Below are positions 27,083 to 48,404 of a DNA stretch of 64,000 nt, in pieces. The DNA comes from Pseudomonadota bacterium (lineage in GTDB: Bacteria > Pseudomonadota > Gammaproteobacteria > Burkholderiales > REEB80), in NCBI GenBank assembly GCA_028873515.1, contig JAGWIG010000002.1, positions 93,950-157,949 of the forward strand, read 5' to 3'. Under the pieces are notes generated by a model. It ran no database searches. It was not told the DNA's origin and saw nothing but the letters and a program-made list of their open reading frames with translations. Position numbers and translations under genes: made by a program. Within the stretch, counting starts at the first letter, position 1; every line of letters starts with the position of its first letter.

Positions 27083-27259
27083 GGGCCTCCCGCATATGCC
27101 GTCAGGCCATCATCCTGAACCTAGTGGTTCAAGGCGGTCGCCACGCCCCAGCTTCAGGCTCATTCGCAAAGGAATGCGCACAACGGCCAGCACCTGCAGC
27201 AACCCTGTTTCAAATATTGGTTCAAAGAGTCTTTGACCTTAACCAACACAGCAGGAGGA
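27083..27259 (-). ncRNA. ssrS: 6S RNA (SsrS)
   Basis: Starts right after the zapA stop, as in the zapA-ssrS synteny of E. coli. On the minus strand, 5' CCUCCUGC pairs with 3' GCGGGAGG and the pairing extends into a long closing stem. There is an internal hairpin GCCUUGAACCACUAGGUUCAGG analogous to E. coli CCUUGAACCAAGGGUUCAAGG. Length is about 180 nt and the ends are approximate. Confidence 0.72.
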
Positions 27260-27262
27260 ACT

Positions 27263-28039: not shown

Positions 28040-28232
28040 TAGAATAGCACCGTTTCAGGTGCCCTAAACTTTACTGAGTTAGGGAGAATCGGGAAGCAGG
28101 TGAGCACCATGCAATTCCTGCACTGCACCCGCAGCGGTAAGTAAGTGTGGGCGTATCAGCAAGCCACTGTGATTTTAGTCACGGGAAGGCGATACGCCAA
28201 GTCTTGCAAGTCCGAAGACCGGCCTGTCACAT
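28040..28232 (+). promoter_or_regulatory. Cobalamin (B12) riboswitch
   Basis: Conserved core elements are readable: GGTGCC...AGGGAGAATCGGGAAGCAGGTGAGCA..., CTGCACTGCACCCGCAGCGGTAAG, GCCACTG...GGGAAGGC, and the B12 box AGTCCGAAGACCGGCC. It lies directly upstream of a TonB-dependent receptor. Confidence 0.85.
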
Positions 28233-28364
28233 CATATTGAGAATGCTGCGGGGAAGCAGATGAACACTCACCCTTTCCAACCGGCTCGTTCGTCGGCCCG
28301 CGCTTCATTCTCATCTTATTAAAAGACGCTCCGTTGCGGGATGCAGACGGAAAGGAGAAAAAAG

Positions 28365-30227
28365 ATGAGTCCAATCAAAATTGGAAGAACCCTGCTTGCA
28401 ATATCAATAATGAAGTCAGCCCTTACCTATGGGTCAACCGTGTATAAAGGGCAGGATTTTGTAGTTACAGCCACACGAACTCCCGAAGCTGCAAGCAACA
28501 CTACTCAGGATGTAACTGTAATCAGTTCTGCCGAGCTTCTCAATTCTGGTCAAAGAACACTTGGGGAAGTGCTCCAGATGACACCAGGAATTGAAATAGC
28601 ACAAACAGGAGGTGCAGGACAAACTGGCAGCATCTTTATGCGTGGAACAAATTCAAACCAGACCCTTATATTACTCGATGGCGTTCCCATCAATACAGGA
28701 AGTATAGGCACAGCCTCCTTCAATATCATTCCTGTCAATGAAATTGATCATATTGAAATTCTTCAAGGCCCAGCAAGCAGTTTGTATGGTGCGAATGCCA
28801 TAGGAGGGGTTATTCAGATATTTACCAAAAAAGGTAGAGGCACCCCCCATCCCTACATCTCTGCAGGAATGGGGAGCTACAATACCTCCCGGATCAGCAC
28901 AGGCTATGAAGGACAAAAAGGAAACCTGAGTTTTAACATTCTGGGCGGACACGATGAATCCACCTCTATCTCGCAAACGAATTCCAGCAACCCATTCAGC
29001 TTTAATCCCGACACGGATCCTTACCGAAATAACTATGTATCAGGACAACTTTCTTATCTCCTTGCCCCCGGTCAAAAACTGGGAATCGTATTTTTACGAA
29101 ACCATGCAACGGTATTCAACGATGATGGGATTTATGGACCAGCCTCCCTGCAGGATCATACAACAACTACAGTAGGCAACTATGAAGCCTATAGCAGAAA
29201 CCGGATCAATTCATATTGGGTGAGCCAGGTCAATTTTGATCATTCTGTAGATAATGAATTCACTCAAACTGCCAATCCCTTCAGCAGCAACGGTTCCATC
29301 AACAATACCCAGAATGAGATTAACTGGCAAAACGACTTCAGTACTTCACTCGGCATAATAACCCTAGGTGAAGAGAATCAATGGCAGTCAGTTGGTGGCT
29401 CAGCAACTACTTTCGTAATTAACAGAAGAACCAACTCTTCACTCTTTGGCGCTTATCATGAAAATTTCGGTCCCCAGTCTTTCATGATAAGCGGGCGTCA
29501 TGACCAGAATAGCCAGTTTGGTGGCCAAAATACCGGCACAGTAGGTTACGGTTACAGGCTTATACCGGATTTAAGAGTTACTGCTACGATCGGCACCGCT
29601 TTCAGGGCTCCGACTTTTGATGATCTATACGCTGTATATCCATACTATATTGCAAATCCAAACCTGAAACCGGAATTTGCCCTAGACAGGGAAGTGGGGC
29701 TACATTATTCCGGCGGACATGGTGGATTCAGTCTTATTTATTTTGATAATAAAATCAGGAATTTAATCACCGGGTACACCGATACAAATTTCAATTACGT
29801 CATGACAAATGTAGGTTCGGCTAGGATAAAGGGATTGGAAATCGGCTATGACACCAAATTAAAGGGGTTTAGATTTCATTCGTCCATTACCTTCCAGCAA
29901 CCTATCAATGAAGATACCAATACACTCTTGGGTCGCAGGGCACGGCAGCACGGCTTTATCAGGGTCAGCAGAAACTTCAATCGCTGGGGAGTGGGAATAG
30001 AGACAGTTTTCTCAGGGAAACGGTATGATTCATCAGTCAGCAACAACAGTTCAAACAGGCTTGGAGGCTACGGAATCGCCAATTTAACTGCAACTTACAG
30101 GGTGAACTCAGAATTTTCCTGGTATTCCCGTTGGGATAATATTTTCAACAAGCAGTATGAATTGGCACAGGGTTATAATACGCCAGGAAGCAACATTTTT
30201 GTCGGCTTTAATTATTCACCAGATTAA
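28365..30227 (+). CDS. btuB: TonB-dependent outer-membrane receptor, vitamin B12 transporter BtuB-like
   Basis: Signal peptide, TonB-box-like DFVVTATR, plug-domain motifs (IEILQGPASSLYGANAIGGVIQI), and a beta-barrel with C-terminal NIFVGFNY. Controlled by the B12 riboswitch. Start trimmed from 28341 to ATG 28365, preceded by AAGGAG. Confidence 0.88.
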   Translation: MSPIKIGRTLLAISIMKSALTYGSTVYKGQDFVVTATRTPEAASNTTQDVTVISSAELLNSGQRTLGEVLQMTPGIEIAQTGGAGQTGSIFMRGTNSNQTLILLDGVPINTGSIGTASFNIIPVNEIDHIEILQGPASSLYGANAIGGVIQIFTKKGRGTPHPYISAGMGSYNTSRISTGYEGQKGNLSFNILGGHDESTSISQTNSSNPFSFNPDTDPYRNNYVSGQLSYLLAPGQKLGIVFLRNHATVFNDDGIYGPASLQDHTTTTVGNYEAYSRNRINSYWVSQVNFDHSVDNEFTQTANPFSSNGSINNTQNEINWQNDFSTSLGIITLGEENQWQSVGGSATTFVINRRTNSSLFGAYHENFGPQSFMISGRHDQNSQFGGQNTGTVGYGYRLIPDLRVTATIGTAFRAPTFDDLYAVYPYYIANPNLKPEFALDREVGLHYSGGHGGFSLIYFDNKIRNLITGYTDTNFNYVMTNVGSARIKGLEIGYDTKLKGFRFHSSITFQQPINEDTNTLLGRRARQHGFIRVSRNFNRWGVGIETVFSGKRYDSSVSNNSSNRLGGYGIANLTATYRVNSEFSWYSRWDNIFNKQYELAQGYNTPGSNIFVGFNYSPD

Positions 30228-36864: not shown

Positions 36865-37059
36865 AATATGACGGCTTCGGCACTTTCTTATAGTGCACGA
36901 AGTGTTTCCTCCTTACAAAAATGATTCTCATACACAATCAGGAACAAACATGTAGCGTCTCCACCCTGTCCGCCTGATACCAGTCCAGATTTCGATCTGG
37001 CATTAACCCAATCAGGTTCAGCTTGCAATTCTGCCACATTTTTAGTACCTTCTCATCTT

Positions 37060-39063
<2,004 letters not shown>

Positions 39064-46399: not shown

Positions 46400-46496
46400 G
46401 CAACTGCTCCTTATGTTTTAGCCTGCCCATTGACCAAAAGCGACATTTTACATCAATTCTAGGCTATGATACCAGATTGAATAGTTATTCTGAGTT

Positions 46497-47162
46497 ATGC
46501 TAAACAATCTTAAATTTATAACCTCCGCGAACAGCCTTTCTGACTTACCAAAAGAAGGTCGTTCAGAAATCGCATTTGCAGGCCGTTCCAATGCGGGAAA
46601 ATCTAGCGCAATAAACACGCTTACGAATCAAAATCGACTCGCATTCGTAAGCAAGACCCCCGGTCGGACACAGCTTATCAACTATTTTTCTCTTGGAGCA
46701 CATTACATAGTAGATCTGCCAGGGTATGGATATGCCAAAGTACCTGAAAAAATCAGGCTGCATTGGCAGGATATCCTTGCAGCATACCTTCAATCGCGTG
46801 AAGTTCTTAAAGGCTTAATCCTTATAATGGATGCGAGGCATCCACTTACCCCCCTTGACTGTCAGATGCTTGAATGGTTCGCTCCTACAGGAAAACCTGT
46901 TCATATCCTACTTAGCAAAGCAGACAAACTTTCCAAGGGGCAGGCAGCTTCGGTATTAAATCAAGTCAAATCTGTTTTAACAAATAATTATCCATCAACA
47001 AGTGTCCAGCTCTTTTCAAGCCCGAAAAAACAAGGTGTAGAAGAGGCATGTAAAATTATACTGAAATGGCTGGATGAACCCTTTTCAATTGAAAAAGAAG
47101 CCCCCGGTAAAGGGGAGGAAGGCCGGGGGCATATGCCTTATAAGGTTAAGGCACCCGCATAG
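46497..47162 (+). CDS. engB: Ribosome biogenesis GTP-binding protein EngB/YihA/YsxC
   Basis: 221 aa. G1 [17 protein letters not shown] and the LSKADK (NKxD-type) motif are present. The last 23 codons lie inside the repeat element described below. Confidence 0.9.
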
Positions 47163-47225
47163 GGATAGAGCGGGTTGATGATGTATCCATCACCTAGCCA
47201 TAGGACAAAGGAAAAAATAATTAGT
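47091..47225 (-). ncRNA. Candidate sRNA, copy A (promoter-distal)
   Basis: Minus strand: TATAAT (47231-47236) precedes GGGAACU... Stem-loops are GGUGAUG-GAUA-CAUCAUC, ACCCGC-UCUAUCCCUAU-GCGGGU and GCCUUA-ACCUUA-UAAGGC. The terminator is CCCCCGG-CCUUCCUCCCCUUUA-CCGGGGG followed by CUUCUUUUUC. Confidence 0.5.
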
Positions 47226-47235
47226 TCCCTATTAT

Positions 47236-47375
47236 AAAAAAAACCCCCGGGTTAAAAGGGGAAGAAAACCCGGGGGTACAACGCCTTAACGGGTGTTAAG
47301 GCCCCGCTCAGGGAGGTAAGCAGGAGATGGCCTTTCGCCACCTGCTAGATAAGACCAGCTTCAGATGATAAAGTT
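47236..47375 (-). ncRNA. Candidate sRNA, copy B (promoter-proximal to hemB side)
   Basis: Minus strand: TAATAT (47381-47386) precedes GGGAACU... Stem-loops are GGUGGC-GAAAG-GCCAUC, CCUGCU-UACCUCCCUG-AGCGGG and GCCUUAAC-ACCC-GUUAAGGC. The terminator is ACCCCCGGG-UUUUCUUCCCCUUUUAA-CCCGGGGGU followed by U8. Confidence 0.5.
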
Positions 47376-47402
47376 CCCGAATATTAAAAAATTTTAGGAT
47401 TC

Positions 47403-48404
47403 ATGATGACCTTTGATGCCACCTTTCCTTCCCGACGCATGCGTCGAATGCGTCGAGACAACTTCAGCAGAATCCTCATGCAGGAACATGCTCTTCTACC
47501 TGGAGATTTAATCTATCCAGTTTTTGTCATGGACGGGAAAACCAAAGCATCGGCCATATCAAGCATGCCGGGCATCAACAGGTTAAACATTGATGGTTTA
47601 CTGAATATGGCTGAAACTGCAGTAAATCTTAGCATTCCTGCACTTGCCCTGTTTCCTTTCATTGACCCCACCCTAAAAACTGAAGATGCATCGGAAGCAT
47701 GGAATCCTGACGGACTCATACCCAAAATAGTACGTAAACTCAAATCGTCTTTTCCCGATCTTGGCATTATTACCGATGTAGCCCTCGATCCATATACTAC
47801 ACACGGACAGGATGGGCTTATTGATGCTTTTGGTCACATCGATAACGAATCAACTGTAGAAGCACTAATCAGGCAAGCGCTGGTCCAAGCCCAGAATGGC
47901 TCCGACATGGTCGCACCTTCAGATATGATGGATGGCCGCATTGGTGCTATACGGCTTGCTCTGGACACAGAAAAACACTATCAGACTCGTATTCTTGCCT
48001 ATTCTGCAAAATATGCATCGGCATTTTATGGCCCATTTCGTGAAGCGATCGGTTCCGCCACATCTCTCCGGGGTAATAAAAAAACTTATCAGATGGATCC
48101 TGCCAATGGCAATGAAGCACTATGGGAAGCGGGCCTTGATGTGCATGAAGGTGCAGATATGTTGATGATAAAACCTGGTATGCCCTATCTCGATATTCTC
48201 TGGAGAATAAAACAGAATTTCCTCATGCCCACCGCTATATATCAGGTCAGCGGGGAATATGCCATGATCAAAGCTGCAGCAGAGCGCGGCATGATATCAG
48301 AAAAAGAATGCGTTATGGAAGTCTTAACGGGATTTAAACGTGCTGGAGCCGATGCCATCCTGACCTATTATGCACTGGATGCAGCACGCTGGCTTAAAAG
48401 CTAG
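47403..48404 (+). CDS. hemB: Porphobilinogen synthase (delta-aminolevulinate dehydratase)
   Basis: 333 aa with the RRMRRMRR N-terminal pattern. The Asp-rich DVALDPYTTHGQDG site stands in place of a Cys-rich Zn site. The catalytic-Lys regions (SAKYASAFYGPFR, MIKPG) are present. Confidence 0.95.
   Translation: MMTFDATFPSRRMRRMRRDNFSRILMQEHALLPGDLIYPVFVMDGKTKASAISSMPGINRLNIDGLLNMAETAVNLSIPALALFPFIDPTLKTEDASEAWNPDGLIPKIVRKLKSSFPDLGIITDVALDPYTTHGQDGLIDAFGHIDNESTVEALIRQALVQAQNGSDMVAPSDMMDGRIGAIRLALDTEKHYQTRILAYSAKYASAFYGPFREAIGSATSLRGNKKTYQMDPANGNEALWEAGLDVHEGADMLMIKPGMPYLDILWRIKQNFLMPTAIYQVSGEYAMIKAAAERGMISEKECVMEVLTGFKRAGADAILTYYALDAARWLKS

Follow-up and report, generated by a model that had tools for sequence, protein, structure and literature searches.

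Two tandem units between engB and hemB

We analyzed a stretch of 64,000 nucleotides (nt) from contig JAGWIG010000002.1 (hereafter, the window), which belongs to an uncultured betaproteobacterial metagenome-assembled genome (MAG; 45% G+C). The focus is the region between engB (yihA) and hemB, the gene for porphobilinogen synthase, where the minus strand carries two consecutive units resembling small RNA (sRNA) genes. The cytochrome c4 gene and resB are located upstream and a YcgR-like PilZ gene downstream of this region. The locus is a real feature of a known sRNA family, anti-hemB, and its new aspects are a tandem paralogue with an altered seed, an overlap with engB and a conserved promoter of the RpoE type.

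The two units, B and A, occupy positions 47377 to 47091 of the minus strand in a head-to-tail arrangement with a period of 150 nt, as judged from the starts of hairpin 2 (47324 and 47174). Local alignment of unit A with unit B yields a score of 49, compared to 16.2 ± 2.4 (maximum 27, n = 300) for shuffled sequences, and the MAFFT alignment of both units contains 89 invariant columns. An earlier reading of the sequence alone (the original prediction) had described two copies of one ~149-nt unit and listed a set of motifs, all of which are present where it had placed them, and the repetition is confirmed. Furthermore, the Logan assembly L081, obtained independently for this organism, is identical over 3666 nt, so that the tandem pair is not an assembly artefact. 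The assignment of both units to the engB-hemB spacer holds for copy B, but the 3′-terminal 72 nt of copy A (47091-47162) overlap the engB frame. The features of the locus are as follows.

46497-47162, plus strand: engB (yihA), Pfam MMR_HSR1; antisense to copy A over its final 72 nt
47091-47195, minus strand: predicted copy A RNA, ~104 nt; 5′ end predicted
47100-47130, minus strand: copy A terminator, loop CCUUCCUCCCCUUUA; interrupted U-tail at 47091-47099
47135-47152, minus strand: copy A hairpin 3, from the fold
47154-47174, minus strand: copy A hairpin 2, from the fold; diverged loop UCUAUCCCUAU
47177-47194, minus strand: copy A hairpin 1, from the fold
47201-47205, minus strand: putative copy A -10 box TCCTA; 16-nt spacer, overall 9/11 match
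47222-47228, minus strand: putative copy A -35 box GGAACTA, starting 7 nt past the copy B U-tail; GGAACTA also occurs in L084, L090 and L086
47236-47346, minus strand: predicted copy B RNA, ~108-111 nt; 5′ end predicted from the -10 box and by analogy with ncS04, the homologue whose 5′ end is mapped
47244-47276, minus strand: copy B terminator; U8 tail at 47236-47243
47283-47302, minus strand: copy B hairpin 3, from the fold
47303-47324, minus strand: copy B hairpin 2, from the fold; loop UACCUCCCUG
47325-47343, minus strand: copy B hairpin 1, from the fold
47350-47354, minus strand: putative copy B -10 box TCTTA; 16-nt spacer, fits the AlgU/RpoE consensus
47371-47377, minus strand: putative copy B -35 box GGAACTT, at the same distance to hairpin 1 in 17 family instances
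47403-48404, plus strand: hemB (porphobilinogen synthase), Pfam ALAD, E = 3.5e-130

Each unit would thus comprise an A/T-rich tract, an RpoE/AlgU-type promoter, an RNA of ~105-110 nt with four hairpins and a Rho-independent terminator. Both predicted RNAs fold into four consecutive hairpins (-62.0 kcal/mol, z-score -4.6 for copy B; -47.1 kcal/mol, z-score -3.5 for copy A), which are separated by linkers of 0-6 nt, with no U-rich single-stranded stretch. Three of the four hairpins in each RNA carry C-rich loops, including, in copy B, CCUCCCUG in hairpin 2 and UCCCCUU in the terminator. A pattern scan detected terminator-like sites at 47261-47244 and 47118-47101, on the minus strand only. The fold and the terminator scan, together with the family assignment described below, support the view, already contained in the original prediction, of a sibling pair of minus-strand sRNA genes with intrinsic terminators and C/U-rich loops resembling anti-Shine-Dalgarno sequences. 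Given their position, the two RNAs converge with engB and would be antisense to RNA running from engB into hemB.

Assignment to the anti-hemB family

Over its full length (positions 1-81), the Rfam model of the anti-hemB RNA (RF02837) matches copy B at 47236-47327, minus strand. The 61.1 bits of this match (E = 8e-12) exceed the gathering score of 49.5. Copy A also matches the full model (47092-47178, minus strand), with 38.4 bits, below the gathering score (E = 2e-7 in a 601-nt search). With our own covariance model R1, which has four hairpins and consists of the Rfam model plus hairpin 1, the scores were 117 bits for copy B and 78.4 bits for copy A, although copy A was included in the seed alignment. 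The loop of the CUUCUCCUCCCUGAG type that marks the family is present in copy B as CUUACCUCCCUGAG and is followed by two hairpins and U8. The correspondence of copy A is structural only, with the three hairpins kept and the loop reading CUCUAUCCCUAUG. Judging from these matches, both copies are members of the anti-hemB family, copy B by the curated threshold and copy A as a diverged paralogue.

The original prediction had looked elsewhere for relatives, namely, to the betaproteobacterial toxic sRNAs and the Neisseria sibling sRNAs; the Rfam check places both copies in RF02837 instead. The toxic sRNA family RF02278, characterized by a GUCUCCUCC-type 5′ end and two hairpins, had no match at E ≤ 10 on either strand of 46950-47550 and, among ten related loci, was detected in L015 alone, below the threshold (29.3 bits vs a gathering score of 50). 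The sole Neisseria match, to IR_84, was on the plus, i.e., wrong, strand (22 bits vs a gathering score of 51, E = 0.2). ErsA/Pseudomon-1 (RF01719) matched copy B with 26.9 bits (E = 0.004, gathering score 50) over model positions 34-108 only and was absent, at E ≤ 10, from ten other loci. Homology to RybB has been mentioned in the older literature; there was no Rfam match at E ≤ 10 to RybB or MicA, nor was there one to Spot 42. The sub-threshold Rfam matches were all to families with C-rich loops, namely, LhrC (25.5 and 33.6 bits), sX13 (~25 bits), ar14 (~25 bits), mmgR and RF02278. Those to LhrC, sX13, ar14 and RF02278 land on the same spots, far below the respective gathering scores, and represent unrelated lineages.

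The anti-hemB RNA was predicted with CMfinder in 2007 by Weinberg and colleagues, who could not decide on the strand from covariation ('hemB/anti-hemB') and, in view of the terminator, favored a non-coding RNA (PMC1950547). It is also known as 'Burkholderia RNA 7', Bc7 (Ramos 2013) and ncS04 (Sass 2015/2017). In Burkholderia cenocepacia J2315, ncS04/Bc7 spans 292949-293053, opposite in orientation to hemB (BCAL0264) and engB (BCAL0265), and the order hemB, sRNA, engB, cytochrome c4, resB mirrors that of the window exactly. This RNA is 105 nt long, with the transcription start site (TSS) determined by differential RNA sequencing and the 3′ end by rapid amplification of cDNA ends; it has been detected on Northern blots and was recovered together with Hfq (PMC5688073, PMC4603805, PMC6321483). 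Its 5′ end was mapped one nt before hairpin 1. hemB is a predicted target of Bc7, and RybB was named its 'homolog' in an earlier in silico analysis (PMC6321483).

The window thus shares with the B. cenocepacia system the covariance-model family, the order of the hairpins, the CUUCUCCUCCCUGAG-type loop (in copy B) and the arrangement of the terminator, as well as the site and orientation between hemB and engB, near cytochrome c4 and resB. The order engB (plus), sRNAs (minus), hemB (plus) is the mirror image of BCAL0264/ncS04/BCAL0265, and the location is that of the anti-hemB family. The differences are that two tandem copies are present here vs one, that the seed loop of copy A is changed and that copy A overlaps engB. 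In addition, the Burkholderia RNA lacks the extra C-rich motif UCCCCUUUA of the terminator loop, which is common to the window copies and Nitrosomonadales-like relatives. A discrete Hfq-binding RNA of ~105 nt has been shown for the B. cenocepacia homologue and is predicted here. Known from publications since 2007 and listed in Rfam for years, the anti-hemB RNA is widespread in Betaproteobacteria and binds Hfq, and it has been without an assigned regulator or function.

Homologues and covariation

The EngB protein of the window shares 79% identity with its counterpart in one other MAG and at most 70% with those of Sulfuricella, Nitrosomonas and Nitrosospira. We searched R1 against 80 listed hemB loci from genomes and 12 engB loci retrieved by exact protein; the hemB locus listing (at least 80) missed close relatives. 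The model detected exactly one copy in each of 24 other betaproteobacterial loci, the nearest relative included, upstream of hemB or after engB, and two copies were found in the window only, with no more in its 64 kb. This distribution bears on the possibility that the units are a dispersed repeat of the repetitive extragenic palindromic (REP) or miniature inverted-repeat transposable element (MITE) type, for which the sole point is that two similar structured units stand side by side. The original prediction had already favored a functional RNA over a decaying repeat, and the count of two in the window agrees with this. With a single syntenic copy per locus in 24 other genomes, neither terminal inverted repeats nor target duplications, and a family that is a curated Rfam sRNA, the probability of a mobile repeat is negligible.

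In the 25 aligned matches, 93% of the cells pair, compared to 72 ± 1.1% after column shuffling and at most 54% with slid partners, and changes on both sides are found in 26 of the 29 pairs, covering all four helices. Fitting of the alignment to the model makes these figures lean towards structure, but the margin is large. The original prediction had deduced compensatory stem changes from the comparison of the two copies. Between A and B, there are two clear double changes, both in hairpin 1, and the real covariation support comes from the 25 homologues. Alignment of 21 sequences with MAFFT followed by RNAalifold recovered hairpin 2 only, and a hand-specified structure with covariance-model re-alignment was needed. 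The hairpin-2 loop CUCCCUGAG is invariant in 21 of 24 instances.

Because G-U pairs outnumber A-C pairs 34 to 9, the minus strand is favored as the structured one. The same spacer could be viewed from the opposite strand, as a duplicated 'hemB motif' that forms a structured cis-regulatory leader of hemB, with the minus-strand features being incidental. Such a leader would be in line with the strand left undecided by covariation in 2007 (PMC1950547), with the z-score of -4.8 obtained for the plus strand of the spacer, which folds well too, and with the long hemB leader of B. cenocepacia. It would leave unexplained why U-run terminators and the conserved promoter are on the minus strand, why G-U pairs prevail over A-C pairs, why the minus-strand RNA was mapped, blotted and found bound to Hfq in B. 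cenocepacia, and why some instances have no hemB downstream. We consider the plus-strand interpretation improbable.

Several family members are found in unusual contexts. In the metagenomic locus L133 (82-197, minus strand), the RNA follows a gene resembling those for outer membrane proteins (OMP), with neither hemB nor engB in view. In Sulfuricella (L084/L085, 3087-3197, minus strand), it follows engB without hemB. In Nitrosomonas (L086, 4819-4930, and L087, 3521-3636, minus strand), an IS110 insertion separates the RNA from engB, and the hairpin-2 loop has diverged. The Methylophilaceae-like engB loci L214 and L216 contain no anti-hemB copy, and their engB overlaps a convergent Methyltransf_4 gene; the sRNA slot after engB is thus not universal in Nitrosomonadales-like genomes.

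A conserved candidate promoter of the RpoE/AlgU type

Both units begin with a conserved GGGAACU, which the original prediction had read as the start of the RNA behind a -10 box (TATAAT in copy A, TAATAT in copy B). Alignment of the homologues suggests a different role, that of the -35 element in a promoter of the form GGAACTT-N16/17-TCTxA, i.e., of the RpoE/AlgU (sigma-E) type, rather than that of an RNA 5′ end. Upstream of the RNAs, the alignment displays GGAACT[T/A/C], followed by 16-18 unrelated bases and TC[T/A]nA, the end of which is 5-8 nt away from hairpin 1. All 17 instances share AAC and TC, the spacers are unrelated, and an A/T-rich tract lies upstream. At least 9 of 11 positions of GGAACTT-N15-18-TC[T/A]nA are matched in 15 of 23 instances, compared to 1.7% of random 70-nt windows at any position. 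Copy B is the sole 11/11 match in the 64-kb window on both strands (128 kb). Further fitting loci are L213 (Nitrosospira sp. Nsp2) and L215, both perfect, and L133 (10/11). The published AlgU consensus is GAACTT-N16/17-TCtgA, with the variants TCttA and TCctA (PMC3819740, PMC10651043).

A C at the third -10 position was seen in copy A alone among the instances, so that its -10 box appears weaker. Transcription would start ~6 nt after the -10 box, that is, 1-3 nt before hairpin 1, in agreement with the mapped 5′ end of ncS04. From the position of the -10 boxes and the start of the 105-nt ncS04, RNAs of ~108-111 nt (copy B) and ~104 nt (copy A) are expected. Moreover, the motif accompanies the RNA where hemB is absent (L084/L085, L133) and is thus not part of a hemB leader. 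The sequence of the promoter fits the class of RpoE-dependent sRNAs that includes MicA, RybB, MicL and ErsA. Its conservation before most members of the family outside Comamonadaceae provides the first testable regulator of the anti-hemB RNA and predicts both the sigma factor and the stress.

The anatomy initially proposed, with sigma-70 promoters at TATAAT/TAATAT, a start at GGGAAC and RNAs of 135-143 nt (135-140 nt in the original estimate), fares poorly in comparison. The hexamers exist, are good -10 matches and have GGGAAC at a suitable distance, and A/T-rich boxes are found upstream of GGAACT in several relatives. They have no -35 partner, a scan of 46400-47600 on both strands returned 0 sigma-70 sites, and they lie upstream of what is more likely the -35 box; the TATAAT of copy A is simply the stretch in front of that copy's -35 box, behind the U8 tail of copy B. 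Among relatives, both the sequence of the A/T tract and its distance vary, whereas GGAACT and TCTxA are fixed, and L088, L090 and L215 have no -10-like hexamer directly before GGAACT. Together with a mapped ncS04 that starts at hairpin 1 and measures 105 nt, this renders the sigma-70 layout quite unlikely, and lengths of ~105-110 nt are to be expected from the promoter boxes.

Copy A as a lineage-specific paralogue

The nearest relative with the same gene order (L082) carries a single copy that is orthologous to copy B, with 82% identity and paired changes in hairpins 1 and 2. In this genome, 128 nt of unrelated spacer separate the copy from the engB stop codon, and neither R1 with filters off nor local alignment against shuffles revealed a relic of a second copy. 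Sequence comparison thus indicates that the duplication is specific to the lineage of the window, with copy B as the conserved orthologue and copy A as a lineage-specific paralogue. Copy A is the most divergent member of the family, with ~60% identity to every other member including copy B, so that the paralogue must be old or must have evolved fast. In other genomes, it is the single copy that adjoins engB at this position. Tandem sibling sRNAs as such are familiar, as in PrrF1/2, LhrC and AbcR1/2.

We scanned metagenomes for two CTCCCTGAGC loops located 130-160 nt apart and found no true tandem pair among the 80 loci listed out of at least 120 matching stretches, a weak negative given this scope and given that the scan is blind to pairs with one diverged loop. 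R1 confirmed one family member among these stretches, the single copy of L133, with its second match inside the OMP-like gene.

Copy A has no CUCCCUGAG loop in hairpin 2, a loss that is otherwise seen only in the diverged Nitrosomonas homologues L086 and L087. The claim of the original prediction that the C-rich loops are conserved is therefore half true. With its changed hairpin-2 seed, copy A might either address different targets or be drifting. The latter alternative, taken to its end, would leave copy B as the sole working gene and copy A as a non-functional, decaying duplicate. The Rfam score below the gathering threshold, the lost loop, the unique TCCTA -10 box, the interrupted U-tail, the divergence from all other members, the absence of both copy and relic in the nearest relative, and the overlap with the engB reading frame are all consistent with decay. 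Conversely, copy A keeps four intact helices (z-score -3.5), an intact -35 box and a C-rich terminator loop (CCUCCCCUUUA) that is nearer to the consensus of the relatives than that of copy B, and its hairpin 1 differs from that of copy B by paired changes (GGUGGC/GCCAUC vs GGUGAUG/CAUCAUC). On balance, we regard the loss of function of copy A as doubtful. The siblings form a natural pair with and without the invariant seed loop, a built-in comparison for the role of this loop.

The overlap has also altered the product of engB. The engB frame reads through the antisense of the copy A terminator, hairpin 3 and hairpin 2 to a TAG at 47160-47162, within the A-specific change of the loop. As a result, EngB carries a lineage-specific C-terminal tail of 24 residues (47091-47162, plus strand) and consists of 221 amino acids (aa) vs 197 aa in the nearest relative, with the similarity ending at ..WLDE. 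In terms of annotation, copy A would escape the Rfam gathering threshold, and the engB frame is extended into an sRNA gene. The EngB protein of L090 (P0041, 244 aa) also reads through its sRNA terminator (..PPVKGEENRGEHKP).

Proposed mode of action

We interpret the locus as two tandem anti-hemB genes, independently promoted and terminated, that would be transcribed from sigma-E-type promoters and act through Hfq-dependent pairing of their C-rich loops, an interpretation to which we assign a probability of roughly 0.6. Activation of an RpoE-type sigma factor would lead to the synthesis of both RNAs, as the promoter sequences suggest. The RNAs would then bind Hfq, a step shown for the B. cenocepacia homologue only. 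Finally, the exposed C-rich loops might pair with the Shine-Dalgarno sequences GGGAGG/AGGAG of target mRNAs and block translation. Pairing with Shine-Dalgarno sequences is the mode of action of other sRNAs with C-rich loops.

Several observations weigh against this interpretation. The Comamonadaceae-type homologues L002, L006, L010, L022 and L026-28 carry sigma-70-like boxes (TTGTTA-N17-TGATAAAT; TAGAAT/TAGATT), so that sigma-E control does not extend to all members of the family; judging from these boxes, the promoter type has been exchanged within it. In B. cenocepacia, ncS04 was unchanged in biofilm, stationary phase, starvation, osmotic, acid and low-iron conditions, and the sRNAs tested were largely not induced by exposure for 20 min to 0.01% sodium dodecyl sulfate (SDS) or to H2O2. 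This lack of induction ill fits a strongly envelope-stress-inducible gene, the brief SDS treatment being a weak counter-indication. No rpoE gene is present in the 64-kb window, and a search for GGGAGG or AGGGAT next to start codons gave no convincing target, 64 kb being too little sequence. The condition of copy A described above, that is, its divergence, weaker -10 box, interrupted U-tail and sub-threshold Rfam score, counts here as well.

The RNAs might alternatively act mainly in cis, as antisense to the hemB leader (and, for copy A, to the 3′ end of engB), causing processing or block of hemB, with the loops being of secondary importance. Haem synthesis would then be coupled to the signal that drives the sRNA promoter. 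Transcription of hemB in B. cenocepacia starts mainly at 293115, 5 nt past the engB stop, from a promoter inside the 3′ end of engB, and the resulting 248-nt leader runs across the whole of ncS04, so that both strands are transcribed. A similar arrangement is indicated in the window. Here, 25 nt separate the start codon of hemB from the -35 box of copy B, and pattern scan and inspection of the plus strand of the spacer revealed no terminator, no sigma-70-like promoter and no hemB promoter; therefore, any hemB leader would cross both sRNA genes antisense, and both RNAs are, by position, perfectly complementary to the engB-hemB read-through or hemB leader RNA. The prediction of hemB as a target of Bc7 (PMC6321483) and the location of the family, which across bacterial families sits mostly upstream of hemB (bioRxiv 10.64898/2026.09.01.748597), point in the same direction.

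Other evidence argues for action in trans. The RNA persists without an adjacent hemB in Sulfuricella (L084/L085) and in L133, an antisense role would not require an invariant loop across lineages whose stems covary, and trans-acting sRNAs typically bind Hfq and end in a U-tail. A predominantly cis-acting RNA is a possibility that we rate well below even odds, and it is compatible with, rather than exclusive of, the Hfq-dependent loop pairing proposed above. A cis component on the hemB leader is likely also present.

Comparison with other sRNAs

The closest analogue by function and position appears to be ErsA of Pseudomonas aeruginosa (RF01719). ersA is located in the polA-engB spacer (PMC8575079) and thus adjoins engB, whose 3′ end copy A overlaps here. 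It is read by AlgU/sigma-22 (PMC8395346), the consensus of which fits the boxes of the window at the sequence level. Both RNAs have a C-rich terminator loop, and Hfq dependence, predicted for the RNAs described here, would be a further likeness. ErsA differs in its length of 132 nt, in a U-rich single-stranded seed at nt 26-56 (PMC5819304), which has no counterpart in the RNAs described here, and in its other neighbor, which is polA and not hemB. Common descent is a hypothesis, and we treat the resemblance as an analogy of position and regulation only.

ErsA has been regarded as a functional orthologue of Spot 42 (PMC8395346, PMC8575079), an sRNA of E. coli and other Gammaproteobacteria. The Spot 42 gene (spf) is convergent with engB/yihA, as are the RNAs of the window, with its 3′ end ~120 nt from the engB stop (bioRxiv 10.64898/2026.07.10.737749). 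Spot 42 differs from the window RNAs by the lack of sequence or model similarity, a different fold and different seeds. The spf promoter is a CRP-repressed sigma-70 promoter. In Escherichia coli K-12 (L092, 4046500-4052500), engB/yihA lies between the convergent spf and csrC, with hemN two genes away. This setting, spf-engB-csrC with a nearby hemN, appears to be a curious parallel to the betaproteobacterial engB-sRNA-hemB arrangement.

MicA, RybB and MicL of Enterobacteria share the promoter type GGAACTT-N16-TCxxA and are Hfq-dependent base-pairing repressors; their seed is single-stranded and located at the 5′ end, whereas the candidate seeds here are C-rich hairpin loops. Several UCCC/CCUCCC loops that pair with ribosome-binding sites are found in LhrC1-5 of Listeria, sX13, alpha-r14 and toxic sRNA/NcS27/S17. 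For all of these, the likeness is one of motif and logic, not of family. LhrC is encoded in multiple copies, some of them in tandem, and its genes respond to envelope stress by induction.

These parallels tentatively suggest that, outside Comamonadaceae, the anti-hemB RNA might be a betaproteobacterial RpoE-dependent envelope-stress sRNA that occupies the engB-convergent slot of ErsA and Spot 42, and that was duplicated here, with one copy acquiring a new seed. If this were true, which we consider possible but less probable than not, Beta- and Gammaproteobacteria would share an ancient association of the engB 3′ end with an sRNA gene, one that has been rewired repeatedly. The engB-convergent position, which the RNAs described here have in common with ErsA and Spot 42, merits a systematic look.

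Minor features of the locus and the window

A plus-strand open reading frame (ORF) of 13 codons (47327-47368; MAFRHLLDKTSFR, then stop) lies 10 nt behind a GGGAGG and is antisense to copy B. L082 carries a similar short ORF (MTFCHLLDMTSSK, then stop), and L084 and L088 lack its ATG. This ORF is probably a by-product of the constraint on the sRNA and its promoter.

Three other RNA elements were detected elsewhere in the window: a 6S RNA at 27083-27260 on the minus strand (RF00013, 66.9 bits), a cobalamin riboswitch at 28040-28241 on the plus strand (110.3 bits), ahead of an ORF at 28341-30227, and a thiamine pyrophosphate (TPP) riboswitch at 37056-37159 on the plus strand (68.7 bits), ahead of an ORF at 37192-39063.

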